Assembly: GCA_949878575.1 (NCBI GenBank)
Contig: CATLAX010000001.1
Location: 320,220 to 384,219 of the forward strand
From: an uncultured Alphaproteobacteria bacterium
Lineage (GTDB): Bacteria; Pseudomonadota; Alphaproteobacteria; Rs-D84
Reading direction: 5' to 3'
DNA: 64,000 nucleotides
Below, piece after piece: positions 29,310 through 46,785 of this stretch. Within the stretch, counting starts at the first letter, position 1. Each line of letters begins with the position of its first letter. Below the pieces are notes generated by a model that saw only the letters and a program-made list of their open reading frames with translations, searched no databases and had not been told where the DNA came from. A program made the translations under genes and the position numbers.

Positions 29310-30116
29310 ATGAAAAAAGCCCTTGTCTTTTTTACCGCTATGTTGTCATTGTGCCCCGAATTGGGGCATGCGGCGGCTACTATCAAAAAGGCCGCCCCGG
29401 TCGCATCACAGCAAAAATCCGCAATGGACAGTACGGGCAGTCTGGTGCCGACGGTGCTGGGGCTGGTAAGTTCGGTTCAGTCGTTAAGTGCCAAAACCAA
29501 AGAGTTAACGGCGGAATGCGTGCCGTCGTCCGCGGATATAACCTTTGTTAACAATGTTGTCAAGGAATGGGCGAAAACAGGGGCCGCAACCGCTGACGAG
29601 GCAGAGAAGTCTTTGGGAATGCGTCGGTGCCCAAATATGCCCAGCGGCGGATATGCGCATTACATGGAACTTTATGCGGGTGATGCGGAACAGGAGATTT
29701 GCACCGACTGGTTCGGAGATGAATCAGAGAAAGACATGGTGTGGTACGGATTCCCAAAGGCTGCGGTTGCAACTGTTTGTTCTGACGGCTCGTACGATTG
29801 TGGCAATTCAAAGAAAAAGACCGTTTCAAACATATACAATGTTTTTAACCTGGTTGATTTTGGAATAGATGACTATACCAAGAGAGAGGCGCAAACGGCG
29901 GCAAGTCTGTTAAATAAAATAGAAAAATGCTCTGATGCGAAATTAAGTGCCAGAAAGCGCGAAATGTGGGGTGATTTCCTGATAAATACTTTGGGCAATG
30001 TCGGGCAGTCCACCAACACCGGTGCGATAATGCAGTCCGTACAGAGTGTTTCCGGCAGCGGTCTGGGCGGCTTGTCGTCTATTTCCGGGTTGGCGACGGA
30101 TCTGCTTAACAAATAA
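29310..30116 (+). CDS. Secreted hypothetical protein
   Basis: Signal peptide MKKALVFFTAMLSL. The start is taken at an internal Met of ORF 29286..30116. Confidence 0.4.
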   Translation: MKKALVFFTAMLSLCPELGHAAATIKKAAPVASQQKSAMDSTGSLVPTVLGLVSSVQSLSAKTKELTAECVPSSADITFVNNVVKEWAKTGAATADEAEKSLGMRRCPNMPSGGYAHYMELYAGDAEQEICTDWFGDESEKDMVWYGFPKAAVATVCSDGSYDCGNSKKKTVSNIYNVFNLVDFGIDDYTKREAQTAASLLNKIEKCSDAKLSARKREMWGDFLINTLGNVGQSTNTGAIMQSVQSVSGSGLGGLSSISGLATDLLNK

Positions 30117-30248
30117 AACCAAAGACGCGTGCTGCGCTTTAGAGGTTTATAATCGTTGATATGTTCAATGTTTTTATCTGTTCTTTTTCTGCTTTACTCG
30201 TGACTGTAAAAATCGTATAATATGGACGATAATATAAAGGAAATGGGG

Positions 30249-31787
30249 ATGAAAAATAAATCTGTTGCATCAACATGGATTATTGCGCGGATGTTTGCGG
30301 CGGTCTCGGTTGTGGCACTGGGCGCGTGTTCGGGGACTGCCCGCAACGATAATTATTCATCGGCTGCGACGCCGACGGTGGATTATGTGGAATCCCTGGA
30401 TGTTTATTCGGCCCCGCACAAGGATTCTTTTTTGAATCAGCTGGCGATGAATTATCGTTCTTATGCGATTTACAACGCCCGGACCAGTGGTTATACCGAT
30501 ATGGGGGAATTGTTCGCTCAGAAGGCGGTGGCGGCTTTTTCCGGTGAACTGCCGTTCCCGGAAAGTCTGGCAAACTGGCCTGTGGCGGACGAGCAGACCG
30601 CTTTTGAGCTAAATACCGCATACAATGATTTGATGAACGAATTGAAAAACGACGCCAGTGAAAACAACCCGGAACTGGCGGCAGAGGCGCAGGCTAAATT
30701 TGACTGCTGGCTGTCGGCAGAGGCGTCAGGCCAGACCGCCACGGCCCGTGAATGCCGCACCAGGTTTAACAAGACCTTGACTGCGTTGCGCGATTGTCGC
30801 GGGGGCAAGATTGTAAATCCGCGCAAGACGGTTACACAGACGGAAACAATTGCCGTTGAAACATCCACGCGTCGTGCGGATGCCCAGACTTATTATCCGG
30901 ATACACGTGATATGGCGGCAATGCGCGGGGCGGGGCGCGCCCGCGAAGGCGTGATTATTGTAAACAACGTCAATGTGCCGGAACATTTGATTAATCCAGT
31001 GCCGGTACAGCCCATGGTGTTCAATCAGAACATATACGGCGGCGACAAATCTATGAGCAACAGTTTGAACAACAACGAAATTTCCGAGTTTTCGGAATGT
31101 GTTGACGGTGCGCCGTGTGCAACGGGTGCCGTTGTGCCGCAATCAGGCGGTGCGTCATCTGCCATGGTGGGCGGCGGTGATGAAATTCCGATGATTGGCG
31201 ATGAAATGGTTAGTCGTGAAGAGTTTATAAACATGATGATGGCGATGCGTGCGGAACTGCAGGCGATTAATGCACGCCTGGACAAGATTCAGGCCGCCCA
31301 GAACGACAAGACCATGATAAAGGTTCAGCAGATTCCGTTGGAACCGTCGCAGCACATAATGGAAGAGGTTTTTGAGATTCATTTTGACTTTAACAAGGCC
31401 ACAATCAAGCCGGAATATCAGGAATTGATCAGAAAACTGGCCGGGGCGACACAGGCAAATAAAAATATAAAGGTGTCTGTTGTCGGCCATACTGATACGG
31501 CAGGTTCAAAGGATTACAATTATTCTTTGGGCGGACGTCGTGCCGAGGCCGTGCAAAACATGCTGATAAAATACGGTATCCCGGCCAGCCAGATAGTCGC
31601 CGTTTCCGCCGGCGAAGAAGATTTGAAGGTTCCGACACCGGATGGTGTGCCGAATGCACAAAATCGCCGTGTTCGTGTCGTCAAAGAGGTTTATACCACT
31701 GATGACGCGCCGGCGGCTGCGCCTGTCGCAATAGAGGTGCAAGAAGTGTCCGCCGGTGATTGCGGTGAATATGGATGTGGCCAGTAA
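30249..31787 (+). CDS. OmpA-family lipoprotein
   Basis: Lipobox LGAC and a C-terminal OmpA domain (VVGHTDTAGSKDYNYSLGGRRAEAV). Confidence 0.75.
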   Translation: MKNKSVASTWIIARMFAAVSVVALGACSGTARNDNYSSAATPTVDYVESLDVYSAPHKDSFLNQLAMNYRSYAIYNARTSGYTDMGELFAQKAVAAFSGELPFPESLANWPVADEQTAFELNTAYNDLMNELKNDASENNPELAAEAQAKFDCWLSAEASGQTATARECRTRFNKTLTALRDCRGGKIVNPRKTVTQTETIAVETSTRRADAQTYYPDTRDMAAMRGAGRAREGVIIVNNVNVPEHLINPVPVQPMVFNQNIYGGDKSMSNSLNNNEISEFSECVDGAPCATGAVVPQSGGASSAMVGGGDEIPMIGDEMVSREEFINMMMAMRAELQAINARLDKIQAAQNDKTMIKVQQIPLEPSQHIMEEVFEIHFDFNKATIKPEYQELIRKLAGATQANKNIKVSVVGHTDTAGSKDYNYSLGGRRAEAVQNMLIKYGIPASQIVAVSAGEEDLKVPTPDGVPNAQNRRVRVVKEVYTTDDAPAAAPVAIEVQEVSAGDCGEYGCGQ

Positions 31788-32053
31788 ACTTAATAATACT
31801 TGACAAAAAGATATTATTAGTATAACGTGGCTGTGTCAGAGAGATGTTTTTGAAAGAGGCATTGAAAATGACTGATAAGGTAAATGAATTTAACAAGGCC
31901 GGGATGGCGATGCAGCGTGCGGTGGGATATCGTCGCGGAATGGCACAGGTTGTAAACCTGGCAGAGGCGTTCGGACGTCGCGGAATTACGTTTGGTGGAA
32001 TGGATAATCTGCCCGGACAGATTGAAAAATAATATCTCTGGAACAACAAACTG

Positions 32054-32095
32054 TCACAAGGGGCCTTTTACGGGGCCCCTTGTGCGTTTTTTGCA
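32054..32095 (+). terminator. Intrinsic terminator
   Basis: caaggggccttttacggggccccttgtgcgttttttg. Confidence 0.6.
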
Positions 32096-32398
32096 TTTTA
32101 TTATATCCCGCCGATTCCGATTGGGGCTGTTATTCCGGGGGCAGTCGTCTGCAGCGCAAAAGGCTGTTTGGATTGGATAAAATGCTGGAATCGTTAAATA
32201 AATCTTGTCTGTTGTTGCGTGGTTATCTGCTGTATTTTTGTGTGTTGTAAATGATATTGTTGCGGGCTGATGTTGCATAAATTTTATCTTATGCATTAGA
32301 TGGAGCGGGGGTAAAATGAACTGGTGCCATAATAAAACAAACCGCCGAAAAGGGCGGTTCGTATAATATCCGGGCAATATTGAATGCCGTATTGTTTT

Positions 32399-32863
32399 TT
32401 AAAACGGTATATCGTCGCCGATTTCCGCAACAGAAATTTCTTCGCGCGGGGTTGCGGGGGCCGCCGGTGCCTGGCCGTAATCGCCGCCCGGCATGCCGCC
32501 GTCCAGTGCTTTTACCCCGCCCAGTATCACCATCTGACCCATGAACGGATTTAATACAACTTCCGTGGTGTATACGTCCATTCCCTGCTGATTCTGCCAT
32601 TTGCGTGTTTTTAATGCGCCTTCCAGGTACAGTTTTGTTCCTTTTTGCAACATGCGTTCCGCAACATCAATCAGATTTGGGTTGAATATGACAATGCGGT
32701 GCCATTCTGTTTGTTCTTTTTGTTCGCCTGTCTGGCGGTCGCGCCAGCGTTCGGATGTTGCCAAAGAAAAGCTGACAACCTTTTGTCCGCTTTGCATTGT
32801 GCGCACCTGCGGGTCTTGACCCACGTTGCCAACAAGTATTACTTTATTTATGCTGCCTGCCAT
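32399..32863 (-). CDS. ssb: Single-stranded DNA-binding protein
   Basis: MAGSINKVILVGNVGQDPQVR... OB fold with a C-terminal DDIPF tail. Confidence 0.9.
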   Translation of the reverse strand: MAGSINKVILVGNVGQDPQVRTMQSGQKVVSFSLATSERWRDRQTGEQKEQTEWHRIVIFNPNLIDVAERMLQKGTKLYLEGALKTRKWQNQQGMDVYTTEVVLNPFMGQMVILGGVKALDGGMPGGDYGQAPAAPATPREEISVAEIGDDIPF

Positions 32864-33039
32864 ATCGCTTCCTTTTGTTATTCCTATTGGTAAATAAGAG
32901 CAGGAAAAGCTAATAAAAGCAAGGGAAAAACACAGTGTTTGACCGCGTGACTTGACTTTTTGTACTGTTTTATATATAATATTAAACTAAGGAGAGTATG
33001 GTTCCATTACTCTATATATTTCCCGATAAAGGATTTTAC

Positions 33040-34308
33040 ATGCATATAAATGAGTTAAAGGCTAAATCGCCCAAACAACTTTTGAAAATGGCCGAGGATA
33101 TGGGAATTGAAAATCCGGCACAGTTAAATGTTCAGCAGTTGCGCTTTGCGGTTATGCGCGCATATGCCGCCGATAACAAGGTTACCTTAATCGGCGACGG
33201 CGTTTTGGAACGCATGCAGGATGGTTTCGGTTTCCTGCGCGCGCCGGAAAGCAATTATCTGGCCGGGCCGGATGATTTGTATGTTTCGCCCGCACTGATA
33301 AAAAAATACGGTCTAAAAACCGGTGATTATGTAGAAGGCCAGATTCAGGCCCCGCAAAACGAATCGGAACGCTATTTCGCACTGGAAACGATAGAACGGG
33401 TAAACGGCGGCGACCCGGAAAAACTGCGTCATCGCGTGTCGTTTGACGACATGACGCCGCTGTACCCCGACGAACAGCTAAAGATGGAGATAGAGGGCGA
33501 CAAGGACAAGGGGCGCAGTCTGTCCGCGCGTGTGATAGATTTGATTTCGCCCACCGGCAAGGGCCAGCGCAGTTTGATTGTTGCACCGCCGCGTACCGGT
33601 AAAACCGTAATGCTGCAAAACATTGCCCATTCCATTGCGACGAATTATCCGGATGTTAAGTTAATTGTCTTATTGATCGACGAACGACCGGAAGAGGTTA
33701 CGGACATGCAGCGCAGCGTCAAAGGCGAGGTTATTTCCAGTACTTTTGACGAACCGGCCGCCCGTCACATACAGGTTGCGGAAATGGTGATAGAAAAGGC
33801 CAAACGTTTGGTGGAAGCCGGCCAGGATGTTGTCATTCTGTTGGATTCCATAACGCGTCTGGGGCGTGCGTATAATACATGCGTACCGTCCAGCGGCAAG
33901 GTTTTGACGGGCGGTGTTGACGCATACGCCCTGCAGCGGCCAAAAAGATTTTTCGGCGCGGCCCGCAACATAGAAGGCGGCGGCAGCCTGACCATTATTG
34001 CGACGGCGCTGGTTGATACCGGATCCAAAATGGATGAGGTTATTTTTGAAGAGTTCAAGGGTACAGGTAACAGTGAAATCATCCTTGACCGCAAACTGTC
34101 AGATAAGCGCGTATACCCGGCGATTGATATTACAAAATCCGGCACACGCAAGGAAGATTTGCTGGTGGGAAAGGAAATGCTGTCCAAAATGTACGTGTTG
34201 CGCCGTATTATAAATCCGATGGGTACGTTGGAGGCGATGGAGTTTTTGCTGGACAAGCTGCGTCTGACCAAAACAAACGCGGATTTCTTTGGATCCATGA
34301 ATCAATAA
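33040..34308 (+). CDS. rho: Transcription termination factor Rho
   Basis: [25 protein letters not shown]..., Walker A PPRTGKT, and a long 5' leader upstream. Confidence 0.92.
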
Positions 34309-34338
34309 AAACAAAGCGCCCCGTCCGGGGCGCTTTGT
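34308..34338 (+). terminator. Intrinsic terminator after rho
   Basis: aaaaacaaagcgccccgtccggggcgctttgtttt. Confidence 0.7.
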
Positions 34339-34592
34339 TTTGGGAAGCGATGATGAACAAATTGTATTTTTTCGTATTGATTTGCGCGGCCGGTGCCGCG
34401 CTTTATTGTTTGGGCCGCGGCGTCGGCGGGGCGCTGTGTCGGGAAAAATCGGCCGCGTACAATGCAAACGCCGCACTTGTATTGCAGACAAAAATTATTG
34501 AAAAACAAAGGAAGATAGATGTTGAGGTTGTTAATACCGGGGGTGATGATATTCGTCGCATCCTGCGCGAGAAATACACAATTACAGAATAA
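34335..34592 (+). CDS. Small membrane-anchored hypothetical protein
   Basis: 85-aa ORF with an N-terminal hydrophobic helix. Confidence 0.3.
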   Translation: MFWEAMMNKLYFFVLICAAGAALYCLGRGVGGALCREKSAAYNANAALVLQTKIIEKQRKIDVEVVNTGGDDIRRILREKYTITE

Positions 34593-34732
34593 TATATGCA
34601 TGCCGGCAACGTGCCGGCCCATATACGGCAGGGCGGCGGACTGGGATGTAATCAGTGATGATTTGGCGCGCAATATTTACAGGCATAATAAAATGTGTGA
34701 AGAATGGAAATGATATTGACAAATAGTGCTAG

Positions 34733-35680
34733 TTGTCTATAATAAGACTCATGGATTTACAGAATGATACTTTTTCTTCGGCTAAAAAATTGCCAAAGCA
34801 TGCGTCGTTGACGCATCTGTTGCGTCATAAATGGATGGCCAGTCCTGACTCGTGGCGTTATATTTTGTCAAAATGTAATGTTGACCATCACTTGGGGGCT
34901 TTGCCGCCGGAATTGCGTGCGCGCGTGCCAAAAGAGAAACTGTCAGAGGTTACGTATGAATTCCGCGTGCGTTTGGATCGGTTTTTGATAGAAAAAGCCC
35001 CGGAAATACGCAACCGCTCCAACCGATCAAGATACAATGTTGCAGAAATAGGTGATTTGTTTGGCACATCCTGCATAATAAAGACTGGAGCGGTTAATGT
35101 ATACGGATGGCGCAAATGGGAGGGCCGCTATGGCGTTGTGTGCAAGATGCAGTTTCCGCAAATACAGGCCGAATATGCGTTAAAGATTTTTTTGCCGCTG
35201 CCAAAAGAAGAAAGCCAAGAACATGTTGGCCATGGTGCTTCTTATGAGATACCTACGGCGTTTGCTGCTTCTTATGCAGAACAAGCGGACAACGTGCATG
35301 TTTATATGGCGTCCTTGTGTGCGGAGAATTATATCCTGGCCGCCTGGGAAGGCGATATTGCAGACGGTAAAATCCGTAACAATAAGAACAAGATTTTTGT
35401 TTCAGACATTTTGGAAACAGAAGCGCGTAACTATCGCGCCGGCCGCCGGATTGATTTTGGCGCCACTTTTCTTACACCTTACGGTCGGCTGCCGTATGAC
35501 GTGCGCAAATTGTACCGTTGTATGATAAATGCCGCCCGCAAATTTGATGTGGACACTTTTGCCAAAGTTGTCGCCGGTGTCCCGCACCAAAAAATTCAGG
35601 CCGTGATAGATACGGCAAATGTCAATGACCGCATGTTTATACGTGATATGATGGCGCGGCTGGGCATGCAGCAGCGTTAG
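34733..35680 (+). CDS. Hypothetical protein (possible kinase-like fold)
   Basis: 315 aa. VYGWRKWEGRYGVVCK resembles a G-loop/beta3-Lys arrangement. This is weak. Confidence 0.35.
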   Translation: MSIIRLMDLQNDTFSSAKKLPKHASLTHLLRHKWMASPDSWRYILSKCNVDHHLGALPPELRARVPKEKLSEVTYEFRVRLDRFLIEKAPEIRNRSNRSRYNVAEIGDLFGTSCIIKTGAVNVYGWRKWEGRYGVVCKMQFPQIQAEYALKIFLPLPKEESQEHVGHGASYEIPTAFAASYAEQADNVHVYMASLCAENYILAAWEGDIADGKIRNNKNKIFVSDILETEARNYRAGRRIDFGATFLTPYGRLPYDVRKLYRCMINAARKFDVDTFAKVVAGVPHQKIQAVIDTANVNDRMFIRDMMARLGMQQR

Positions 35681-36513
35681 CTGTTTGCCACAATCCCGAC
35701 AAGCTCGCGAACCGCATCCGCCGTAGCCTGGTCGCCGGCCGGGGCGTATTCCACGAATTCAAAACTGTGTGCATCGGCAAATTCACGTGCAAGACGCCGT
35801 GCGGCATACATGCTGATGCCGTTTGGTTCCGGCACCAGAACATCTTTGAAATACTGCGGGTCTATTGCGTCAAAATCAAAAGAAACCACAAACGGGCGTC
35901 CGTCCAGGCGTCTGCGTATTTCCGTAATGGCATCGTCCAGGTCGCCGTCGGTCTGCAGTGCGTCCGCCCCGCGCATGAAAATTCCGTTTTCACGCACAAA
36001 ACTTATTTCTGCCGGCTCGTAAGAGCGGCTGGCCAGATAAAACAGATTTTCCGGACGCAGTGCCGGGAACTTTGACTGCAGTGACAGCCAGCGCGCGTCA
36101 CCTTCGCCCAGGTTGGCGCGGACATTTGTTCCGTGCGGTGCCCCCGATGCCTCCGCCTTTGAACTTTCCGGCGTATGAATATCCAAATGCGCGTCAATGT
36201 ATACCAGGCACAGATCCTCGTCCGGCATTGTATCGGCAACGGCCGCAAAATGGCCAAAGTTTACAGAATGGTCGCCGCCAATAAGAATATGGCGCCCGGC
36301 CGGTGTCGCGGCATATATTTTTTTATGAACTTCAAATGCGTCGCCAAAACGGTCGGCCATGCATACATCCGCCGGAACCGGATCCGCCGTAATCATTGTC
36401 CAGTTCGCCTTTGGAAACATTTCGCGCACGGCCCCCGGCCCCAGGGCGGGCCCGCCTTCCACTATCTTTGCGGTTGCACCGCGTCCGTATTCCACACCTA
36501 TAAAGTTAGTCAC
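35677..36513 (-). CDS. Arginase/agmatinase/formiminoglutamase-family ureohydrolase
   Basis: GGDHSVNFG, DAHLDIHTPESS and SFDFDAIDP metal-binding motifs. Confidence 0.75.
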   Translation of the reverse strand: MTNFIGVEYGRGATAKIVEGGPALGPGAVREMFPKANWTMITADPVPADVCMADRFGDAFEVHKKIYAATPAGRHILIGGDHSVNFGHFAAVADTMPDEDLCLVYIDAHLDIHTPESSKAEASGAPHGTNVRANLGEGDARWLSLQSKFPALRPENLFYLASRSYEPAEISFVRENGIFMRGADALQTDGDLDDAITEIRRRLDGRPFVVSFDFDAIDPQYFKDVLVPEPNGISMYAARRLAREFADAHSFEFVEYAPAGDQATADAVRELVGIVANS

Positions 36514-37510
36514 TGTATGCCTCCACTATGCTTTCGGCGGCGTTTTTTATTTTTGCCAGGCCGGATTCGTATGATGCGCAATCGCGTGCTATTTCAGAAC
36601 GATATGCATCGCGCATGTTTGTCGCCATATAGGCACAGCCGCGTAAATGTTGTACGCAGTAATCATGCCCTGTGGCGAATGTCTGCTGGCCGCGCACACG
36701 GCTTTCCGTGCCGGCCCAGTTGATGTTTAGTGCATTTTCCAAATTTACCCATGAATTGTCACCGGTGTATTTCCCGATTGTATTCATCCAATATTGATTC
36801 ATTTCTTCATCAGACCACGTGTTTGTGCTTTGCAGGCGCAGTATTTTTTGAATCAGCCCATCTATTGCCGGTTGATATTCGGCATCAATCCGGGCCAGCT
36901 TTGCACTGCAGTAACACCTGTTATAGGTGGTGTTTTCCCGGCGGCAATATCCGTTCATACATTCCGTGTAATCCGCCAGACAGCGTGCTGCCGGCAGGCT
37001 TTCCGTTGTGTCCGCTGCGGCCGCGGCGGCGGCCCCCAACGCCGTTTGCGATGTCTGGGATGCATCACCGCGGGCACTGCGTGCGGCCATATTTCCGCGC
37101 ACCGCCGCACGTGGTACCACGCGGCGCGTGCCGGATGATGTCGCCGCCCCGCCATTTTGTGTCGTGCGCAGTCCTGCGCGCGCGGCGGTATTGCCCGCGG
37201 CTACACCGGTTCCGGCGGCGTTTGCACTGCGTGCGGCGTTGCGCGACACAACCCGCCGCGGCGCCGACAACTGTTCCGTGCGCGTAATTACGTTTATCGG
37301 ATTTGAACCCTGGTTTGGCGTAACACCGGGGTTTAAATCAGTGCGCATTTGATTGTTTAGATATGGATACATATAGTTGTAATTGTATGCCGCGTTTGGC
37401 GATGCGGTCGCACTGCGTGCACCGGTGTTGCGCGTGGTCACCGCCGATGCCGGCATGGCCGCGGTTATAAATATGAATACAAAAGCAAAAAGGCATCGCA
37501 CTGACATCAT
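36506..37510 (-). CDS. Secreted Cys-rich hypothetical protein
   Basis: Signal peptide MMSVRCLFAFVFIFITAAMPASA. The supplied 440-aa ORF (36506..37828) is trimmed to this Met because the longer version runs through tRNA-Pro. Confidence 0.45.
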   Translation of the reverse strand: MMSVRCLFAFVFIFITAAMPASAVTTRNTGARSATASPNAAYNYNYMYPYLNNQMRTDLNPGVTPNQGSNPINVITRTEQLSAPRRVVSRNAARSANAAGTGVAAGNTAARAGLRTTQNGGAATSSGTRRVVPRAAVRGNMAARSARGDASQTSQTALGAAAAAAADTTESLPAARCLADYTECMNGYCRRENTTYNRCYCSAKLARIDAEYQPAIDGLIQKILRLQSTNTWSDEEMNQYWMNTIGKYTGDNSWVNLENALNINWAGTESRVRGQQTFATGHDYCVQHLRGCAYMATNMRDAYRSEIARDCASYESGLAKIKNAAESIVEAYSD

Positions 37511-37596
37511 GATGCATTTTAGAAATTTTACGAAAACGAAACAAGCATAAAAATTTGCAATTTTGAAAAAGATTGATATACTTTTGCATTGTATAT

Positions 37597-37673
37597 CGGG
37601 GCGTAGCTCAGTCTGGTAGAGTGCTTGCTTTGGGAGCAAGATGTCGCATGTTCGAATCATGTCGCCCCGACCA
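37597..37673 (+). tRNA. tRNA-Pro (anticodon TGG)
   Basis: Cloverleaf: acceptor CGGGGCG/CGCCCCG, anticodon stem CTTGC/GCAAG, loop TTTGGGA, T-arm GTTCGAATC, 3' CCA encoded. Confidence 0.9.
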
Positions 37674-37686
37674 AGTGGTTTAATAA

Positions 37687-37713
37687 AACGGGTGTCATCG
37701 GCGCCCGTTTTAT
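37687..37713 (+). terminator. Intrinsic terminator after tRNA-Pro
   Basis: aacgggtgtcatcggcgcccgttttatt. Confidence 0.6.
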
Positions 37714-37773
37714 TACATTTCTTATATGATTGAATAAAAAAACGCTGGCCTGTGGTGAAAATGATAATGATAT

Positions 37774-37883
37774 AAAAAAAGCCCGACAAGCGGGCCGATA
37801 GAGGATGTTGTTGCCAACAGAGCCCCACAGAGTATTTCTTTATTGTAGATTGCTTTCCAATTCAGTCCGTAATTTAGAAATAC
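37774..37883 (-). ncRNA. Predicted tracrRNA of the type II-C system
   Basis: The minus strand reads 5'-...CUGAAUUGGAAAGCAAUCUACAAU AAAG AAAUACUCUGUGGGGCUCUGUUGGCAACAACAUCCUCUAUC GGCCCGCUUGUCGGGC UUUUUUU. The 22-nt anti-repeat pairs with 19 contiguous bp (plus wobble) to the crRNA repeat 5' end GUUGUAGAUUGCUUUCCAAAUUGG. A Neisseria-like ACAAUAAAG junction is present, and a terminal GC hairpin plus U7 forms the terminator. Confidence 0.65.
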
Positions 37884-37890
37884 ATTGCGC

Positions 37891-37918
37891 ATTGTAGTTA
37901 TAGGAATTAGAATGTCAA
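37891..37918 (-). promoter_or_regulatory. Sigma70-like promoter for the tracrRNA (TTGACA-N16-TACAAT)
   Basis: On the minus strand, TTGACA lies at 37918..37913 and TACAAT at 37896..37891. The predicted TSS is about 37883. It is divergent from cas9. Confidence 0.6.
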
Positions 37919-37934
37919 GAAAAAGACAATAAAC

Positions 37935-40900
37935 ATGCGGATATTTGGTTTTGATTTGGGAATTGCAAGCATCGGCTGGGCGGTTGTTGACATAGAAAAA
38001 GAAAACAATAACCCAGAGGTGGAACGTGCCACTGTTGGTAAAATACAGCAGTCTGGGGTGCGTATTTTTAGTGTCGCAGAAAACCCAAAGGACGGTTCTT
38101 CATTGGCGGCACCGCGCCGCGAGAAGCGGCGGGTCCGTCGTGCGTTGCGCAGGAAGGCGCTGCGAATGAAAGAAATTCGCGCATTGTTGGAAAATAGCGG
38201 CCTGGGCAACCAAAATATCGTTGTTAATTCTGATGATATTGATGTCTGGGCTTTGCGTGCCGAAGATGCCTTTTGCCGCAAGTTGTCGCCACGTGAACTG
38301 TCGCGTGTACTGGTTCATATGGCCAAACATCGTGGGTATAAGTCAATGCGTAAGTCCGCAGAGGAAAACGATAAAGAAACCGGAAAGGTCCTTGTTTCAA
38401 TCGCGCGAAATCGCGAACGTATGGGCGAGTATAAAACAATGGCCCAAATGATTTATAAGAGCGGCTGCAATGATGCAAAAAAATATCGCAATGGTGATGG
38501 CGTATATGATAATTCAATCCCGCGGGAAGAAATAGAGAGGGAACTGGATTTAATTTTTGACGCTCAGCAAAAATATGGGTTGTTTACGCCAGAATTACTG
38601 GAACAATACAAAAAAATCGCATTTCGTGTGCGGCCGATGCAGTCTGTTGGTAAAATGGTTGGCGGGTGTACGTTAGAGCCGAATTGTTTGCGCGCACCGA
38701 AAGAGGCGCCCACGGCAGAATTATTTGTGGCGCTGACCCGTATAAACAACATGAAAATTGTTATTGATGGTGAAGTTCGCTCTGTAAATGATGAAGAACG
38801 GACGGCCATCCTGGATTTGTTGCGCAAGACGCAAACGGTTAAATATAAAACATTGCATAACAAAATATGGAAGGGGCAAGACGTCGTTTTTCGCGGTGTA
38901 AAAGAAGAAACTCAAGATTTTTATTCCATGGCCGGATGGCATAAATTAAAGAAAATCTTGAATGATGCCGATATGGCGGATATGCGAATGCTTGACCGGA
39001 TTATGAAGGTTGTTGCAACCCAGAAAGATGAAGCGGCAATAGCAAAAGAATTACGACGCAAGAAAGTCCCAGAAAAATATATTGCAAAATTAAAGGAATT
39101 GTCTACGTCCAAATTCATAAATCTGTCTTTGCAGGCCTTGTATAAAATTGTCCCGGAAATGATGCGCGGGCTGACGTATGACAAGGCTTGTGCGGCGGTC
39201 GGCTATGATTTTAAAACCAAAGTATCCGGGGATGTAAAGGTGGATAATGGCTGCATTGCAGAGATTTCAGAATGGACGCGTGTCCCGGTTGTTAATCGTA
39301 CTGTAGCACAGTTTCGCAAGGTGTACAATGCGCTGGTCCGGAAATATGGCGCCCCGGATCAGGTGAATTTAGAGGTTGGACGCGAATTAAAGAATAACTT
39401 TGATGATCGTAAAAAAATAGAACGTCAACAGAATGAAAATCGCGATAAAAATGATAAAGCGCGCGCAGAATATGAGGGGCTGGTCGGGCGCAAGGCAACG
39501 GCCAAAGAAGTCTTAAAATATAAACTGTATCAGGACCAAAACTGCCAATGCATGTATTCTGGCGAGGCGATTGATTTAGCGCATCTGGATGATTATGAGA
39601 TTGATCATATCTTGCCGTATTCGCGGTCGTTGGATAATTCTTATACCAACAAGGTTTTGGTTAAATACACAGAAAATCAGGCAAAAGGCAACAAGACGCC
39701 ATATGAATATCTTGGCAATACCGCACGCTGGGACGCGTTTGTCGGGCGTGTGTCCGCAATCAAGACTGCCTTGGGGGGACGTAAGATTGCAAATCTATTG
39801 AACAAAGATTTTGAAGCAAAAGAAGAGGATTTTCGCGAACGCAATGCAAATGATAACGCGTATGCATCCCGCCATATCCGCCAGATTTTAAGCATCGCTT
39901 TCCCGGAATTGCGTGTTGATGTTCGCGCCGGGGCATTGACACATTATTTGCGCGGGCAATGGGGGCTGGAAAAATCGCGTACGGAATCAGACAGGCACCA
40001 TGCCCAGGATGCGATTGTTGTCGCCTGTGCAACACAGGGGATGGTGCAGTATTTGTCAACAATATCTGGGTTGTTTGAAAATAAACGTAACGAGAAGGAT
40101 AAACCGTGGTGGAATAGGTTAAAACAAAACATTCAAGAACCGTGGGATGGATTTCGTGCCGATGTTTTGCGGTCGTTGGATGAAGTGTTTGTTTCGCGCA
40201 CGGTGCGTGGCAAGGCAACGGGCTCGGCGCATAAGGATACCATCAATTCACCAAAAACTAATAAAGGCAGCATGATTTTGCCGCGTGGACGCGCCGATAA
40301 AGACAATATGTTCCGCATGGATATCTTTAAAAAAGACGGAAAATATGTGGTTGTGCCAATATTTGTGGCAGACACGGTTGACAAAAAACGCCAAGATATA
40401 TTTTACCCACAACCCGCCAAGGCGCATAATCCGGTCGCAGTTGATGATACTTATGAATTTGTTATGACATTGCACAAGGATGATTATATCAAGATCACGA
40501 CAGCAGATGACAAAATATATGAGGGGTATATTGTTCAATGCAATATGCCTGTTGGACAGTTTGTTATAAGAAGTACTGATAATTCCGCGGTATTTTCTGT
40601 CAAAACAGATACCTTTGAACCAGACAATTTTATTGTCATAGATGGTAATTTGTGTAAAGTTAAGGATTATGAATGCGGTAAATTGCGTGCAGTGCGCATG
40701 AATGGTGTTGTTGAGGAAATTGATGCCATGAAGAAGCACATGCGTAGTGGCGAGGTCGCGAAAAAGCAAATACAGACAGTAGATAAATATGAAAAGCGTG
40801 ATGCGCAAAAAACGATAAATGTTGGTACTTTTAAAAACTTGCAAAAATTTCATATTGATGTTTTGGGCGATAGGTCAGAGGTTAAATCTGAACATCGTGC

Positions 40901-41006
40901 GCCGGTCTGCGCTATAAAACCGCAATCAGAAAAAAGAAAAGGAAGGAAGCAACCTAAAAGGAATAAAAATGGGGTGGCGAATCCTTCAACTAACGAAACC
41001 GTGTAA
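37935..41006 (+). CDS. cas9: Cas9, type II-C, compact (1023 aa)
   Basis: RuvC-I is MRIFGFDLGIASIGWAVV (catalytic Asp). An Arg-rich bridge helix (RREKRRVRRALRRKALR) follows. The HNH region is YEIDHILPYSRSLDNSYTNKVLV...N. RuvC-III is HHAQDAIVVACATQG. Confidence 0.95.
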   Translation: MRIFGFDLGIASIGWAVVDIEKENNNPEVERATVGKIQQSGVRIFSVAENPKDGSSLAAPRREKRRVRRALRRKALRMKEIRALLENSGLGNQNIVVNSDDIDVWALRAEDAFCRKLSPRELSRVLVHMAKHRGYKSMRKSAEENDKETGKVLVSIARNRERMGEYKTMAQMIYKSGCNDAKKYRNGDGVYDNSIPREEIERELDLIFDAQQKYGLFTPELLEQYKKIAFRVRPMQSVGKMVGGCTLEPNCLRAPKEAPTAELFVALTRINNMKIVIDGEVRSVNDEERTAILDLLRKTQTVKYKTLHNKIWKGQDVVFRGVKEETQDFYSMAGWHKLKKILNDADMADMRMLDRIMKVVATQKDEAAIAKELRRKKVPEKYIAKLKELSTSKFINLSLQALYKIVPEMMRGLTYDKACAAVGYDFKTKVSGDVKVDNGCIAEISEWTRVPVVNRTVAQFRKVYNALVRKYGAPDQVNLEVGRELKNNFDDRKKIERQQNENRDKNDKARAEYEGLVGRKATAKEVLKYKLYQDQNCQCMYSGEAIDLAHLDDYEIDHILPYSRSLDNSYTNKVLVKYTENQAKGNKTPYEYLGNTARWDAFVGRVSAIKTALGGRKIANLLNKDFEAKEEDFRERNANDNAYASRHIRQILSIAFPELRVDVRAGALTHYLRGQWGLEKSRTESDRHHAQDAIVVACATQGMVQYLSTISGLFENKRNEKDKPWWNRLKQNIQEPWDGFRADVLRSLDEVFVSRTVRGKATGSAHKDTINSPKTNKGSMILPRGRADKDNMFRMDIFKKDGKYVVVPIFVADTVDKKRQDIFYPQPAKAHNPVAVDDTYEFVMTLHKDDYIKITTADDKIYEGYIVQCNMPVGQFVIRSTDNSAVFSVKTDTFEPDNFIVIDGNLCKVKDYECGKLRAVRMNGVVEEIDAMKKHMRSGEVAKKQIQTVDKYEKRDAQKTINVGTFKNLQKFHIDVLGDRSEVKSEHRAPVCAIKPQSEKRKGRKQPKRNKNGVANPSTNETV

Positions 41007-41874
41007 ACTATCGGTAAAACAAAAACAATTATTTTACGAATCAGATGATACCAAAACAACGATTCCGATAGAGGATTTATCGGTCGTTGTTTTGGAAACC
41101 GGCTTTGTGCAACTAACGGGACATGTCTTGTCAGAATTTGCGGCAAACGATGTTGTGCTGCTGACCTGCGATGCATCGCATTTGCCGGCGGGAACCTTTT
41201 TCCCGTTTCACGATAACTCGCGTTATTCGGAAATGGCGCATATTCAAATTTCGGCCAGCGAACCATTAAAAAAGCGTGTCTGGCAATCGGTTGTGCAGCA
41301 AAAGATTCTGAACCAGTCGGCGGTATTGCATGCATTTGGAACAGAAAACGCATTGTCTGAAATTGCAAAACGCGTACAAAGCGGCGATAGTGATAATCGT
41401 GAGGCCCATGCGGCGCAATTATATTGGCGATTGTTGTTTGGTGATTTTACGCGACGTGATGATGCGAACATTATAAATAAAGCACTAAACTATGGATATG
41501 CCATTGTGCGCGGCTGCGTGGCGCGTAATATTGTTGCGTCCGGATTATTGCCATGTTTTGGTATCCATCATGATAATCAGCTGAATCAATTTAATCTGGT
41601 TGATGACATGATGGAACCGCTGCGCCCGTTTGTGGATTATAGTGTGGCAAAGTTGGACTTGTCCGATTGCTCAGACTTAACACCAGAATTAAAAAATAAA
41701 CTAATATCAGTATTATTATGTAACGCAAATGTGGGGGGTGAAGCAATATCGTTGCTTAAGTGTGCAGAAATGATGTCGGCATCACTGTCCAAGGTATTTA
41801 GACAAAAGGATTGTCGTTTATTGGTGTTGCCGGTGTTTGATAATTCTCTGCTGGATATGGAGGATTTTGACTAA
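40969..41874 (+). CDS. cas1: Cas1 integrase
   Basis: 301 aa. MGWRILQLTKPCKLSVKQKQLFYESDDTKTTIPIEDLSVVVLE is a typical type II Cas1 N-terminus. Its start overlaps the cas9 3' end by 38 nt. Confidence 0.93.
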   Translation: MGWRILQLTKPCKLSVKQKQLFYESDDTKTTIPIEDLSVVVLETGFVQLTGHVLSEFAANDVVLLTCDASHLPAGTFFPFHDNSRYSEMAHIQISASEPLKKRVWQSVVQQKILNQSAVLHAFGTENALSEIAKRVQSGDSDNREAHAAQLYWRLLFGDFTRRDDANIINKALNYGYAIVRGCVARNIVASGLLPCFGIHHDNQLNQFNLVDDMMEPLRPFVDYSVAKLDLSDCSDLTPELKNKLISVLLCNANVGGEAISLLKCAEMMSASLSKVFRQKDCRLLVLPVFDNSLLDMEDFD

Positions 41875-42203
41875 TGGCGCAATATGGGGAACGATTTATG
41901 AGAATGATAGTATTTTTTGATTTACCAACACTGACAAAGCAAGACAGAAAACAAGCGTCCAAATTTCGTAATGCCTTGTTAAAGGATGGGTACTATATGA
42001 TGCAACTGTCTGTTTATTCAAGGATTTGTAAGGGTATGGCACAGGTTGAAAAACATGCCGGACGCCTAAAATGCTTGATTCCGCCCAGTGGAAGTGTTAG
42101 ACTGATGACGGTAACAGAAAAACAGTTCGCTGATATGGAAATATTGGTCGGCGAATCGAAAAAACAAGAAAAAATAGGTGCAAAGCAACTTGTTATGTTT
42201 TAG
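41874..42203 (+). CDS. cas2: Cas2
   Basis: MRMIVFFDLPTLTKQDRKQASKFRNALLKDGYYMMQLSVYSRI. The ATG overlaps the cas1 stop. Confidence 0.9.
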   Translation: MAQYGERFMRMIVFFDLPTLTKQDRKQASKFRNALLKDGYYMMQLSVYSRICKGMAQVEKHAGRLKCLIPPSGSVRLMTVTEKQFADMEILVGESKKQEKIGAKQLVMF

Positions 42204-42227
42204 TTTTTCTTTAAAGAATTACAAAAT

Positions 42228-42256
42228 AACCCGCTATATTCAGCGGGTTGTTTTGT
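42228..42256. terminator. Hairpin terminator between cas2 and the array (usable from either strand)
   Basis: aacccgctatattcagcgggtt + gttttgtt. Confidence 0.55.
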
Positions 42257-42260
42257 TGGT

Positions 42261-42956
42261 ATTATATCAAAACCAATTTGGAAAGCAATCTACAACCGTA
42301 TCGTCTTGTTTGGGAACATTGGAAAGATTATATCAAAACCAATTTGGAAAGCAATCTACAACTATGCCTCGTTCTCAATATCGTGACTTTATATTATATC
42401 AAAACCAATTTGGAAAGCAATCTACAACCACATTCATCGTCAAATACGCCAAGACGGTATTATATCAAAACCAATTTGGAAAGCAATCTACAACCGTAAA
42501 TTGTTTGGTACGCGCTTGTTATCTATTATATCAAAACCAATTTGGAAAGCAATCTACAACGTGAAGACCTCTTTTATGACTTTAAACAGTATTATATCAA
42601 AACCAATTTGGAAAGCAATCTACAACAAGAGTGTTGGCGTGAAATTCAGTTGCCTTATTATATCAAAACCAATTTGGAAAGCAATCTACAACGACCGATT
42701 TGACTGGTGGCATCCGGAATTTATTATATCAAAACCAATTTGGAAAGCAATCTACAACCTACCCGATATTCTTAAATGATGACCATCTATTATATCAAAA
42801 CCAATTTGGAAAGCAATCTACAACATTGATTGGCATAAATGCCGTTGCTCGTAAATTATATCAAAACCGATTTGGAAAGCAATCTACAACCGCTTGTTGG
42901 GGCTGTATGTTTCCTGCAATATTATATCAAAACCAATTAGAAAAACAATCTATAGA
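42261..42956 (-). CRISPR. CRISPR array: 11 x 36-bp repeats, 10 x 30-bp unique spacers. It is transcribed on the minus strand.
   Basis: Repeat (plus strand) ATTATATCAAAACCAATTTGGAAAGCAATCTACAAC with an exact 66-bp period from 42261. Repeat 10 has one SNP (CCGATTT). Terminal repeat 11 (42921..42956) is degenerate. The reverse complement GTTGTAGATTGC...TTTTGATATAAT matches the II-C repeat style and carries an extended -10. Confidence 0.95.
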
Positions 42957-43198
42957 GTTGTGGGTTATTATTAAGAGCTATTTTATTGTATAAAAAAATC
43001 GGTTCGGAGTTTGCCGAACCGATTCATCGCCTTCTCATCTCATTTATAATATTACATAATTTTTATGTCTTTTCCAGTATTATTTTTTTTGCCAGTGCTG
43101 TGAAAACAGTTGTTTTATAGTTAAAATTTGTAATAATTATGAAACGATAATAATCCCATATGATTTTTGCCGCCCGGGGCGGTAAAATTATGTAAAAC

Positions 43199-44035
43199 TT
43201 GTCGGAGAGAGAAATGCCAAAAAAGAAAAAACAGACAAATAATGAAATTCCGTCCGCGGTGCCGGCGGATACTGTTGCAAGTGATGCGGCGCGAAAAAAA
43301 CGTCGCCGCATGGCGTACATTGTCGGCATTGTGGCGGCATTATGCGTTGGGGCTGTTGTGTTAAAGCATGTTTTGACATCCGGACCGTTTATGTATGCCG
43401 GAACACTGGAAACCACAAAGGTGACACTGGCGGCGCGTGTTTCGTCCGATATATCCAATGTTTTTGTGTCAGAGGGCGATTACGTTCTGCGCGGCCAGCC
43501 TCTGATGGAGCTTAGCTGTGACACATATAAGATTTTGGCGACACAGATAGATAATGATTATGGCCGCGCCCAGGCGCTGTCTCAGCGCGGGCACATGTCC
43601 CAGGCGGAGTTTGATGTTTTGACCCGCAACAAGCAGGACAATGATTTGAAATTGCAGTGGTGTAATGTAACGGCGCCGATTGACGGCATAATCACCACAA
43701 AGTTTCGTGAGCCTGGCGAGATTGTGGCGCCTGGAACCGCGTTGATATCGCTGGCGAATCCATATGAAATATGGGCGTATTTTTATGTGCCGTATACAAT
43801 GCTGCACAAATTGCGCGTTGGTCAGCAGGTTACGGGAATCCTGCCGGAGGCGGATAACAAAAAATTTCAGGGAAAAATAATCAAAATCAGTGAAGAGGCG
43901 GAGTTTACACCCAAAAACGTGCAAACTCGCGAGGAAAGGACCCGCCTGGTCTATGGTGTAAAGGTTCAGTTTGAAAATTCTGATCTTAGTTTGAAATCCG
44001 GAATGACGATTGAAAGTGCGCTGGTTGATGAATAA
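43199..44035 (+). CDS. HlyD-family periplasmic adaptor (membrane fusion protein)
   Basis: N-terminal TM helix, coiled-coil and beta-barrel/lipoyl-like segments. It is the first gene of the exporter operon. Confidence 0.8.
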   Translation: MSEREMPKKKKQTNNEIPSAVPADTVASDAARKKRRRMAYIVGIVAALCVGAVVLKHVLTSGPFMYAGTLETTKVTLAARVSSDISNVFVSEGDYVLRGQPLMELSCDTYKILATQIDNDYGRAQALSQRGHMSQAEFDVLTRNKQDNDLKLQWCNVTAPIDGIITTKFREPGEIVAPGTALISLANPYEIWAYFYVPYTMLHKLRVGQQVTGILPEADNKKFQGKIIKISEEAEFTPKNVQTREERTRLVYGVKVQFENSDLSLKSGMTIESALVDE

Positions 44036-44756
44036 GGTTGAAATCAATATTTCAAATATATCAAAGCAGTTCCGGGATGTGGCCGCCCTGGACAATGTTT
44101 CAATGCATTTTGAAACAGGCAAACTGTACGGCATAATAGGTCCGGCCGGCGCGGGTAAAACCACCTTGTTTAGAATTATGCTGCAACTGATGCGCGCGGG
44201 GGCTGGAACTGTTGAATACCTGGCCGACGGGCGTGCGGTAAAGTTTTCTGATTTCAGCGAACATATAGCCTATATGCCGCAGAGTCAAAGTCTGTATGCT
44301 GATTTGTCCATAGACGAGCATCTGGATTTTTTTAAAAAACTGTACGGAATAGATGACGATGAGTATCGCAAGCGTAAGCAGGAGCTGATTCAGTTGGCGC
44401 GTTTGGATAAATTTTTAGATCGTACGGCGGGTCATTTGTCCGGCGGCATGTATAAAAAACTGGGGCTGATGTGCGCGTTGCTGCGGTCGCCAAAGGTAAT
44501 GTTACTGGACGAGCCTACAAACGGTGTTGATCCCATTAGCCGCCGCGAATTTTGGAGTCTTTTGCACGAATCTCTGGGGCGGGGGATTTTGGTGATAATG
44601 ACCACCGCGTATATGGACGAGGCCGAACGCTGCAGCGAAGTGGTGCTGATGGAGGGGGGGCGCGTTCTGGGAACGGGCGAACCACGAGAGCTGCTGGCGC
44701 GGCACGGGTGCGCGAATTTTGATGAGTTCTTTTTAAAGCGCGGGGGTGAAAAATGA
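44025..44756 (+). CDS. ABC transporter ATP-binding protein (first of a split pair)
   Basis: Walker A GPAGAGKTT, signature LSGGMYKK and Walker B LLDEP. Confidence 0.85.
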   Translation: MMNKVEINISNISKQFRDVAALDNVSMHFETGKLYGIIGPAGAGKTTLFRIMLQLMRAGAGTVEYLADGRAVKFSDFSEHIAYMPQSQSLYADLSIDEHLDFFKKLYGIDDDEYRKRKQELIQLARLDKFLDRTAGHLSGGMYKKLGLMCALLRSPKVMLLDEPTNGVDPISRREFWSLLHESLGRGILVIMTTAYMDEAERCSEVVLMEGGRVLGTGEPRELLARHGCANFDEFFLKRGGEK

Positions 44757-45664
44757 CCGCGGCTATTGTTGACGTTCAGGATTTATCTGTTATATTCGGG
44801 GATTTTTACGCCGTGCGTGACGTCACCTTTCGTGTGGCGCCGGGTGAAATATTTGGATTCCTGGGGGCGAACGGGGCGGGAAAGACGACCACAATACGCG
44901 TGTTGTGCGGCCTGTTGCCGGGCAGTCGCGGGCGCGTTGTCATAGACGGCGAAGAATTTGTCCGTGGGCGCGAAAACATAATAAAGCAAAAGGTCGGATA
45001 CATGTCGCAGCGGTTTACGCTGTATGACGGGTTGTCGGTAAAAGAGAATTTTGATTTTGCCGCGTCACTGCGCGGATTGACGCGTGATGAATATTTGGCG
45101 TCCCGGGAAAGACTGCTGGAATTTATAGGCTTTGATAAAAATTTAAATACTGTGGTAAAAAATCTGCCCGGCGGAATAAAACAGGAGGTGGCGCTGTGCG
45201 TGGCGCTGCTGCATAATCCGAAAATCGTTTTTTTGGACGAGCCGACGGCCGGTGTCGCACCTGTGGCGCGCGATCGTTTCTGGAAACTTATAAAAGATTT
45301 GGCCGCCGCCGGCAAAACGGTTTTTGTCACAACCCATTACATGGACGAGGCGGAAAACTGCAACCGCATTGCGCTGATGCGGGCCGGAGAGCTGATTGCG
45401 GTGGATTCGCCCGCAAATTTGAAGCGCCGCACGTTTGGCGACGGCCTGTATAACTTTACCCCGCGGCGTTCGGGCGTGGTGCTGCGCATGGGGGGCGATA
45501 TGGAGATTTGTGAACCGTACGGTCTGCACTGGCATGTAAAATTCAGAAACGGTGTTGACGCCGCCGCGGCCGTAAAAAAATACAGAAATGATTTTGAAAT
45601 AGAAAAAATTCCGCCGTCGCTGGAAGATGTCTTTATCCGTCTGGTGGAGGGACAAAATAGATGA
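44753..45664 (+). CDS. ABC transporter ATP-binding protein (second of a split pair)
   Basis: Walker A GANGAGKTT, signature LPGGIKQE and Walker B FLDEP. Confidence 0.85.
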   Translation: MTAAIVDVQDLSVIFGDFYAVRDVTFRVAPGEIFGFLGANGAGKTTTIRVLCGLLPGSRGRVVIDGEEFVRGRENIIKQKVGYMSQRFTLYDGLSVKENFDFAASLRGLTRDEYLASRERLLEFIGFDKNLNTVVKNLPGGIKQEVALCVALLHNPKIVFLDEPTAGVAPVARDRFWKLIKDLAAAGKTVFVTTHYMDEAENCNRIALMRAGELIAVDSPANLKRRTFGDGLYNFTPRRSGVVLRMGGDMEICEPYGLHWHVKFRNGVDAAAAVKKYRNDFEIEKIPPSLEDVFIRLVEGQNR

Positions 45665-46785
45665 AAATGTTTTCCATGCGCCGAATGGGGGCCATATTTT
45701 CCAAAGAGTTCAAACATATATTCCGTGATCCGTTTACGTTGCTGATGGCGCTGATGCTGCCGCTGGCGATTGTGCTGATACTGGGCAATTCCATTGAGTT
45801 TAATGTACGGTCAATCAATATGGCGTATCATGACGCCGACAGGACGGAAAGTTCGCGCAAGCTGATAGAGACTTTTGCCAGTTCCAATTATTTCCGCCCG
45901 TATGAGATTGAAAATCCGGACGGCGGTTTTTCCGATATTGTGGACGAGCGGGCGCGGGTCATGGTTTCTGTTTCGCCGGATTTTGAGAAAGATGTAAAAG
46001 GCGGCGGCACGGGCAGGGTGCAGGTTTTGATGGATGGCGCGGATAATTCGTCCGTTATGGCAGTCATGAATTATCTGACAACAATCAACCGGATGGCTTA
46101 TTTCAAAATCATGGATATGCCGCGCAGTGTGGCGTCGCCCCAGATGTCTTTTAAAACGCGGTATCTGTTTAATCCGGAATTAAATTCCCGCTGGTTTTCG
46201 GTGCCGGGGTTGTCCGCGGTTATAATTGCGCTGGTGGCGATTATGCTGACCACGCTGACCATATGCCGCGAATGGGAGCGCGGATCAATGGAAATGCTGT
46301 TGTCAACGCCGGCGACATCGCTGGAAATTATTTTGGGCAAGGTTTTGCCGTATGCGATTTTAAGTTTTGTCGGGTTCGTGTTGGTGTTCATAGTGGCGCG
46401 TGTCGTGTTTGGCGTCCCGTTTGTCGGCAGTTATGCGACACTGATACTGGGGACGCTGCTGTTTATTCTGGGCTATCTGGCGATAGGGCTGTTTATTTCC
46501 ATTTCCACGCACAAGCAAGAGGTTGCGATTCAGTTTGCCTGTATAATAGGCTTGCTGCCGACGGTGGTGCTGTCGGGGTTTGTGTTTCCAGTGGAATACA
46601 TGAGCCGTGGTTATCAGGTGTTTTCATCGCTGTTTCCCGCGCGTTTTTACATGGACATAACACGCGACCAGTTTTTAAAAGGCAGTTCGCTGATAGATTT
46701 GTGGGTGCCGTTCGCGTTGCTGGGGCTGCAGGCGGTTGTGCTGATGGTGGCGTGTATCGCGCATTTTAAAAGGACGCTGGAATGA
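45661..46785 (+). CDS. ABC-2 family permease
   Basis: 374-aa polytopic membrane protein with an N-terminal periplasmic loop. Overlapping start/stop codons link the five genes 43199..47873; tolC follows after a 16-nt gap. Confidence 0.8.
   Translation: MKMFSMRRMGAIFSKEFKHIFRDPFTLLMALMLPLAIVLILGNSIEFNVRSINMAYHDADRTESSRKLIETFASSNYFRPYEIENPDGGFSDIVDERARVMVSVSPDFEKDVKGGGTGRVQVLMDGADNSSVMAVMNYLTTINRMAYFKIMDMPRSVASPQMSFKTRYLFNPELNSRWFSVPGLSAVIIALVAIMLTTLTICREWERGSMEMLLSTPATSLEIILGKVLPYAILSFVGFVLVFIVARVVFGVPFVGSYATLILGTLLFILGYLAIGLFISISTHKQEVAIQFACIIGLLPTVVLSGFVFPVEYMSRGYQVFSSLFPARFYMDITRDQFLKGSSLIDLWVPFALLGLQAVVLMVACIAHFKRTLE

Follow-up and report, generated by a model that had tools for sequence, protein, structure and literature searches.

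A predicted tracrRNA gene divergent from cas9 in a type II-C CRISPR-Cas locus of an uncultured human-gut Alphaproteobacterium

The short intergenic stretch upstream of cas9 in the window (the whole stretch of DNA that was analysed, 64,000 nucleotides or 64 kb, with a G+C content of 49.5%) raises the question of whether it encodes the tracrRNA of the adjacent CRISPR-Cas9 system. A sequence-only reading of the window had predicted a tracrRNA at this site. Our comparison with related loci supported the prediction: the conservation was sharp-edged despite unrelated flanks, the helices covaried, and the anti-repeat changed together with the repeat. On the basis of these comparisons, the stretch very probably encodes the tracrRNA of a type II-C CRISPR-Cas9 system that belongs to an uncultured Alphaproteobacterium from the human gut.

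Gene content and transcription signals of the locus

The genes of the locus and the array were located as follows.

37597–37673, plus strand: tRNA-Pro(TGG), with its own terminator at 37681–37715, which bounds the locus on the tracrRNA side
37935–41006, plus strand: cas9, type II-C, 1023 aa, with RuvC Asp7 and HNH His558 present
40969–41874, plus strand: cas1 (NMENI-type; cas1_NMENI match)
41874–42203, plus strand: cas2
42261–42956, minus strand (crRNA sense): CRISPR array with 11 repeats (36 nt each) and 10 spacers (30 nt each)

Cas9 matched TIGR01865 with an E value of 4e-200, and the nearest solved structure was that of N. meningitidis Cas9 (442 bits, residues 3–745). The C-terminal quarter (approximately 250 aa) gave no sequence match to a solved Cas9 in the PDB; residues about 780–1023 (40275–41003), the WED and PAM-interacting part, end in a Lys/Arg-rich tail, KRKGRKQPKRNK. 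Downstream of cas9 lie, in this order, cas1, cas2, a terminator that acts in both directions, and the array; neither csn2 nor cas4 was found in the locus. The presence of cas9, cas1, and cas2 without csn2 or cas4 therefore indicated type II-C.

Upstream of cas9, the minus strand carries the following elements.

37913–37918, minus strand: −35 box (TTGACA) of the predicted tracrRNA promoter, unchanged in 10 relatives
37891–37896, minus strand: −10 box (TACAAT) of the same promoter, separated from the −35 box by a 16-nt spacer
37774–37884, minus strand: predicted primary tracrRNA of about 111 nt, with the 3′ end within the T7 run
37876–37883, minus strand: 5′ leader strand GUAUUUCU of helix 1, assigned from folding and covariation
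37842–37873, minus strand: anti-repeat, with a core of 19 contiguous bp (37842–37860) and interrupted pairing out to 37873
37832–37839, minus strand: partner strand AGAAAUAC of helix 1, directly after the AAUAA junction
37801–37826, minus strand: conserved hairpin GGGG-CUCU-GUUG-GCAA-CAAC-AU-CCUC, comprising helices 2 and 3, an internal loop, and a GNRA loop
37774–37796, minus strand: intrinsic terminator (helix 4), with the stem GGCCCG/CGGGCU (37796–37780) and T7 (37780–37774)

The promoter that had been read as TTGACA-N16-TACAAT, divergent from cas9, was indeed found on the minus strand at 37918–37891, and it agreed with the sigma-70 consensus at 11 of 12 positions. Sites as good as this one occurred seven times on both strands of the window, against 1.1 expected under a first-order Markov model. 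The transcription start was placed at 37883–37886 from promoter geometry only. The sequence-only reading had put the CUGAA segment (CUGAAUUGG, 37865) about 7 nt past the −10 box, which was incorrect: the actual distance is 26 nt, and a leader of about 19 nt therefore precedes CUGAAUUGG (start near 37884). The GC hairpin followed by U7, which had been taken as the terminator, is present at 37796–37774. Both the promoter and the Rho-independent terminator are oriented to yield the anti-repeat, and both were kept in relatives. The candidate is intergenic, with tRNA-Pro and its terminator (37597–37715) on one side and cas9 (37935) on the other. A 440-aa minus-strand ORF overlapping the tracrRNA was rejected as an over-extension; it runs through the tRNA, and the gene that it over-extends is called with 333 aa in the relative L003.

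The published in-silico criteria for a tracrRNA are an anti-repeat in a type II locus, an intergenic position, pairing with the repeat, and a dedicated promoter together with a Rho-independent terminator in the matching orientation (Chylinski et al. 2013, PMC3737331); all of these were found in the window element. A candidate cas9 promoter, TTGCGC-N17-TAGAAT, was also observed at 37885–37913 on the plus strand, in a back-to-back arrangement that overlaps the tracrRNA promoter, and its counterpart in relatives reads TTGCAA-N16-TAAAAT. Owing to this overlap, the cas9 and tracrRNA transcription units may be in competition for a shared 35 bp.

Pairing with the CRISPR repeat

For the repeat to be complementary to the candidate RNA, the array must be read against the direction of the cas genes, on the minus strand; the repeat is then GUUGUAGAUUGCUUUCCAAAUUGGUUUUGAUAUAAU. 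The core anti-repeat UUGGAAAGCAAUCUACAAU (37860–37842, minus strand) pairs with repeat nt 1–19 through 18 Watson-Crick pairs and G1:U, which reproduced the 19 contiguous bp reported from the sequence. RNAduplex extended the pairing to repeat nt 31 (−34.5 kcal/mol; extended anti-repeat, 37873–37842): the core is followed by an A:A mismatch, seven pairs including a G:U, a bulged C, and four pairs. The anti-repeat claimed earlier is thus present, but its given length of 22 nt did not hold, as the pairing comprises either 19 contiguous or about 30 interrupted bp. A search with repeat nt 1–17, allowing up to three mismatches, returned 10 array copies and one further site at 37842–37858 on the plus strand, with 0.12 expected by chance. 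Since this extra match is a plus-strand one, the complement of the repeat is on the minus strand. It was the sole non-array copy within the 64-kb window at this threshold, in agreement with the view that the window contains no better anti-repeat.

The repeat and the anti-repeat change together across relatives. Repeat positions 18–31 vary among the window and the loci L001, L007, and L012, and the upstream part of the tracrRNA varies too; the cognate duplexes in these four loci are all 30–32 bp long (−34 to −41 kcal/mol). In L016, an internal loop comes after 17 perfect base pairs. The searchable literature contained neither the repeat sequence nor that of the anti-repeat.

The 3′ end of each repeat, TGATATAAT, is a perfect extended −10 box. 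In the cas-distal repeat (42921–42956), six positions of the 5′ half are mutated and the 3′ half is intact. All repeats of the clade (arrays of L001–L090) end in the extended −10 box TGnTAnAAT, and related arrays finish in a partial repeat that retains nt 12–36, the promoter part. In N. meningitidis and C. jejuni, crRNAs start from promoters within the repeats, with no need for RNase III (Chylinski et al. 2013, PMC3737331; Charpentier 2015 review). The pattern in the array fits such Neisseria-type promoters embedded in the repeats.

Two spacers (42693–42722 and 42297–42326) match major capsid genes of Microviridae from animal faeces with 92–97% identity. These were the only credible matches among the 10 spacers of the window array in a search of GenBank phages; the remaining phage matches were 84–89% identical and were taken as chance. 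No match was obtained when 50 spacers from relatives were compared with phages, and four window spacers had no exact match in IMG/VR. The 3′ flanks of the matched protospacers were GAATTT, GAACAT, and GAACAA, of which only two protospacers are independent, and tentatively suggest a PAM beginning with GAA.

An sgRNA could join a 17-nt repeat part to the anti-repeat through a GAAA loop; a candidate would consist of a 24-nt guide, GUUGUAGAUUGCUUUCC, GAAA, and GGAAAGCAAUCUACAAUAAAG through the U-run. The repeat/GAAA/anti-repeat recipe suggested earlier is standard and reasonable, but the statement that the sequence gave all elements needed for an sgRNA was too strong, because the PAM is only hinted at (GAA) and expression is only predicted. 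The tracrRNA call completes the set of guide-RNA parts for a compact type II-C Cas9 of 1023 aa, and sgRNA design is now possible.

Conservation and fold of the minus-strand RNA

We compared 14 close loci (Cas9 79–98% identical) and 78 wider ones. The close Cas9 homologues come from MAGs labelled Alphaproteobacteria bacterium and from human-gut metagenome contigs, and the wider clade is 39–61% identical. The block from promoter to terminator was conserved in more than 25 related gut-metagenome loci (Cas9 39–98% identical). Among L001–L016, identity between the −35 box and the end of the T-run amounts to 88–91%, and it is lost within a few bases past the T-run. The flanking genes vary among close loci, namely tRNA-Pro with an arginase-family gene, a Na/Ca exchanger, an HNH-domain gene with two DNA methylases, or DHFR. 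In almost all wider loci with an array and upstream sequence, the best anti-repeat was found 70–170 nt upstream of cas9 on the opposite strand; in the subgroup L019–L030, it lies approximately 1.1 kb upstream of cas9, beyond a 197-aa ORF.

This ORF (L021, 1561–2154; also in L019–L030, L060, L064, and L068), which separates the tracrRNA from cas9, looks by eye like a serine recombinase/invertase. The locus adjoins tRNA-Pro in the window, L003, L004, and L005, and L001 (5790–5830) retains only a 13-nt remnant of the tRNA 3′ end, TGGTCGGGGCGAC, past the terminator of its tracrRNA. In other close relatives, the cas locus is the same but its surroundings are unrelated and often include restriction or Mrr genes nearby. 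The tRNA-Pro junctions and the unrelated neighbourhoods suggest a mobile defence island.

The predicted 111-nt RNA folded with −26.7 kcal/mol (z = −2.1) into a 5′ helix, the GGGG...CCUC hairpin, and the terminator. The stem region that had been noted after the junction was confirmed as a structured tail, the hairpins of which are conserved and covary. Within the close clade only, the helices were 98.7% paired and three pairs changed on both sides. A covariance model, R1, was built from ten close sequences; it matched the window at 37775–37886 with 138 bits and found the same RNA upstream of and divergent from cas9 in distant members (Cas9 39–47% identical) with 25–49 bits. In L056 and L057, weak plus-strand matches of R1, placed about 3.4 kb before cas9, lie at an ORF start and look spurious, and plus-strand matches over the tracrRNA itself reflect the palindromic leader helix.

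For the counting of pairs, a MAFFT alignment of the 5′ domains (A3) placed the leader helices of subgroups in different registers; therefore, we used the alignment A6, in which the 22 best R1 matches were aligned by the covariance model. In A6, which leans towards the structure because it was fitted to the covariance model, 98.5% of the cells of the four helices were paired across the 22 sequences, compared with 51–61% when the partners were slid by 1–3 columns. Both sides changed in 19 of 22 pairs, and none of 500 shuffles matched the observed values. Compensatory changes in the GGGG...CCUC hairpin were seen in L009 and in distant relatives; in L009, GUCA-GAAA-UGAC replaces GUUG-GCAA-CAAC.

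An Rfam scan of 30000–46000 (E ≤ 1) yielded tRNA-Pro and sub-threshold noise only, with no match to a tracrRNA family. The missing match counts for little, because the Rfam tracrRNA model was built on distant tracrRNAs. It is also no argument against function, as tracrRNAs are too diverse for a single model (Chylinski et al. 2013, PMC3737331).

The conserved block might have its main function on the plus strand, where it would supply the promoter and 5′ leader of cas9, with its inverted repeats acting as a DNA operator or as an mRNA structure. Conservation ends at the T-run and tRNA-Pro is self-terminated, so the cas9 promoter must lie within the block, and the site at 37885–37913 does overlap the tracrRNA promoter. 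However, we counted 26 G:U cells and 4 A:C cells, an excess that favours the minus-strand transcript as the folded molecule, and the hairpin with its T-run terminates minus-strand transcripts only. In addition, L019-type loci keep the RNA approximately 1.1 kb from cas9, past the recombinase-like ORF, so the RNA is conserved independently of adjacency to cas9. We consider it very unlikely that the plus strand is the main site of function; a plus-strand role and a tracrRNA role are, moreover, compatible with each other.

The element could also be a decayed solo repeat upstream of cas9 that yields no functional RNA, flanked by promoter- and terminator-like sites through coincidence. Partial repeats outside arrays do exist: in L069–L090 (Cas9 31–34% identical), a solo copy of the promoter-bearing half of the repeat (nt 12–36, with starts between nt 11 and nt 16) lies in the crRNA sense, on the minus strand, about 130–190 nt upstream of cas9, and may be a repeat-derived tracrRNA promoter. 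In the window element, in contrast, the similarity reaches no further than the first 19 nt of the repeat and runs antisense relative to the array. Coincidental sites are also at odds with the conservation of the whole unit from promoter to terminator, with sharp edges, in differing genomic contexts, and with the covariation of the helices and of the element with the repeat. A decayed repeat is thus highly improbable.

The tracrRNA reading suggests the following course of events. A strong sigma-70-type promoter, divergent from cas9, would produce an RNA of about 111 nt ending at the intrinsic terminator, the anti-repeat of which would pair with the 5′ portion of every repeat in the array. Transcription of the crRNAs would probably begin inside the array, from the extended −10 box at the 3′ ends of the repeats, as in Neisseria. 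The tail, consisting of the AAUAA junction, a short hairpin at the nexus position, the GGGG...CCUC hairpin, and the terminator hairpin, would serve as the Cas9-binding scaffold, and the dual RNA would direct Cas9 to cleave DNA that matches the spacer. These steps, from transcription and RNase III processing to binding by Cas9 and cleavage, are predictions from sequence.

The 5′ leader helix and comparison with known systems

One feature was absent from the sequence-only reading: at least the first 8 nt of the predicted transcript pair with the segment directly 3′ of the anti-repeat. This pairing was present in every subgroup of the clade (L001–L062), with sequences that differ between subgroups, as follows.

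Window: leader GUAUUUCU, partner AGAAAUAC
L036: leader UUUUCGAUUAU, partner AUAAACGAAAA
L019: leader GUAAAGAAAC...UUUGAUU, partner AAUCGAA...GUUUCUUUAC
L045: leader UCGAAA...CGAUUAUU, partner AAUAAUCG...UUUCGA
L054: leader AGAAAUCUUUAUU, partner AAUAAAGA...AUUUUCU
L062: leader AUCUUUG, partner CAAAGAU

The helix appeared in the minimum-energy fold of each single sequence, and the leader/partner duplexes gave z values of −1.9 to −6.4 relative to shuffled leaders. Six of its eight pairs covary in A6. In the predicted fold, the helix closes the anti-repeat into a loop of about 30 nt, and the partner strand AGAAAUAC shares sequence with a weak local AGA/UCU hairpin that occupies the nexus position. 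Co-folding with the repeat opened the leader helix, and L033, L045, and L054 then formed a short hairpin at the nexus position. No description of a leader helix of this kind was found in the literature searched.

According to these fold predictions, the leader helix should compete with crRNA pairing. Our best guess is that it acts as a clamp on the free RNA, stabilising the 5′ end or presenting the anti-repeat, and that crRNA pairing displaces it. A more elaborate possibility, which we regard as rather doubtful, is that the tracrRNA is a crRNA-gated switch: the first 8–17 nt pair with the nexus-position segment in the free RNA, this clamp blocks the nexus hairpin, and the crRNA opens the clamp in the manner of a molecular beacon, whereupon the released segment folds into the nexus hairpin required by Cas9, so that only the loaded tracrRNA is competent for Cas9. 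This proposal draws on the predicted folding exchange in L033, L045, and L054 and on the clade-wide covariation of the helix. If it does serve to gate the loading of Cas9 or to stabilise free tracrRNA, the helix would represent a new regulatory layer in type II-C systems.

The long form of the S. pyogenes tracrRNA was also considered as a model, in which a 5′ extension base-pairs in cis with the anti-repeat and bears a short guide against the cas promoter. The leader of the window RNA pairs 3′ of the anti-repeat and not with the anti-repeat itself, and the arrangement therefore differs from that form. Overlapping tracrRNA and cas9 promoters and a conserved intramolecular helix at the RNA 5′ end would suit a self-folding natural single guide that represses the cas9 promoter, but this is scarcely credible, as the anti-repeat is left out of the helix, no repeat-like duplex forms in cis, and the helix begins at transcript nt 1–4 with no guide-like 5′ extension.

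As a tracrRNA gene, the window element resembles that of S. pyogenes in its position upstream of cas9 on the opposite strand, which is common among type II-A and II-C tracrRNAs (Chylinski et al. 2013, PMC3737331). The S. pyogenes system differs in being type II-A, with csn2, another scaffold, and crRNAs released from a long precursor via RNase III.

The locus shares with N. meningitidis the cas9-cas1-cas2 operon with an array read in the opposite direction, 36-nt repeats that start with GUUGUAG and end in the extended −10 box (TGnTAnAAT), and an ACAAUAA junction after the anti-repeat. The N. meningitidis tracrRNA is located between cas9 and cas1, whereas that of the window lies upstream of and divergent from cas9. 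In addition, the window Cas9 is approximately 60 aa shorter, the scaffold after the junction differs, and the 5′ leader helix is missing from the published N. meningitidis tracrRNA sequence.

The sequence-only reading had likened the junction to that of Neisseria. This resemblance is real, but the likeness to C. jejuni is even stronger: the local alignment score of the window RNA was 58 against C. jejuni and 44 against N. meningitidis. The junction and scaffold of the three RNAs compare as follows.

Window: AAUAAAGA...CUCUGUGGGG; longer form, ...CUACAAUAAAGAAAUACUCUGUGGGG...CCUC
C. jejuni, published: AAUAAAGAG...CUCUGCGGGG; longer form, ...CUAAAAUAAAGAGUUUGCGGGACUCUGCGGGG...CCCC
N. meningitidis, published: junction ACAAUAAGG; scaffold, ...GCUACAAUAAGGCCG...

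The junction and the stretch leading up to the main hairpin are near-identical to those of C. jejuni, with the shared pattern AAUAAAGA(N)nCUCUG(Y)GGGG...CCCC, and repeat-embedded promoters, which are predicted for the window array, are described for C. jejuni as well. The first stem-loop of the C. jejuni RNA is longer and is described as part of a triple helix, and CjCas9 is only distantly related to the window Cas9 (246 bits, N-terminal half). The C. jejuni tracrRNA begins within or at the anti-repeat, without a 5′ leader (Chylinski et al. 2013, PMC3737331). Taken against these systems, the window element leaves known tracrRNA biology unchanged, except possibly for its 5′ leader helix.
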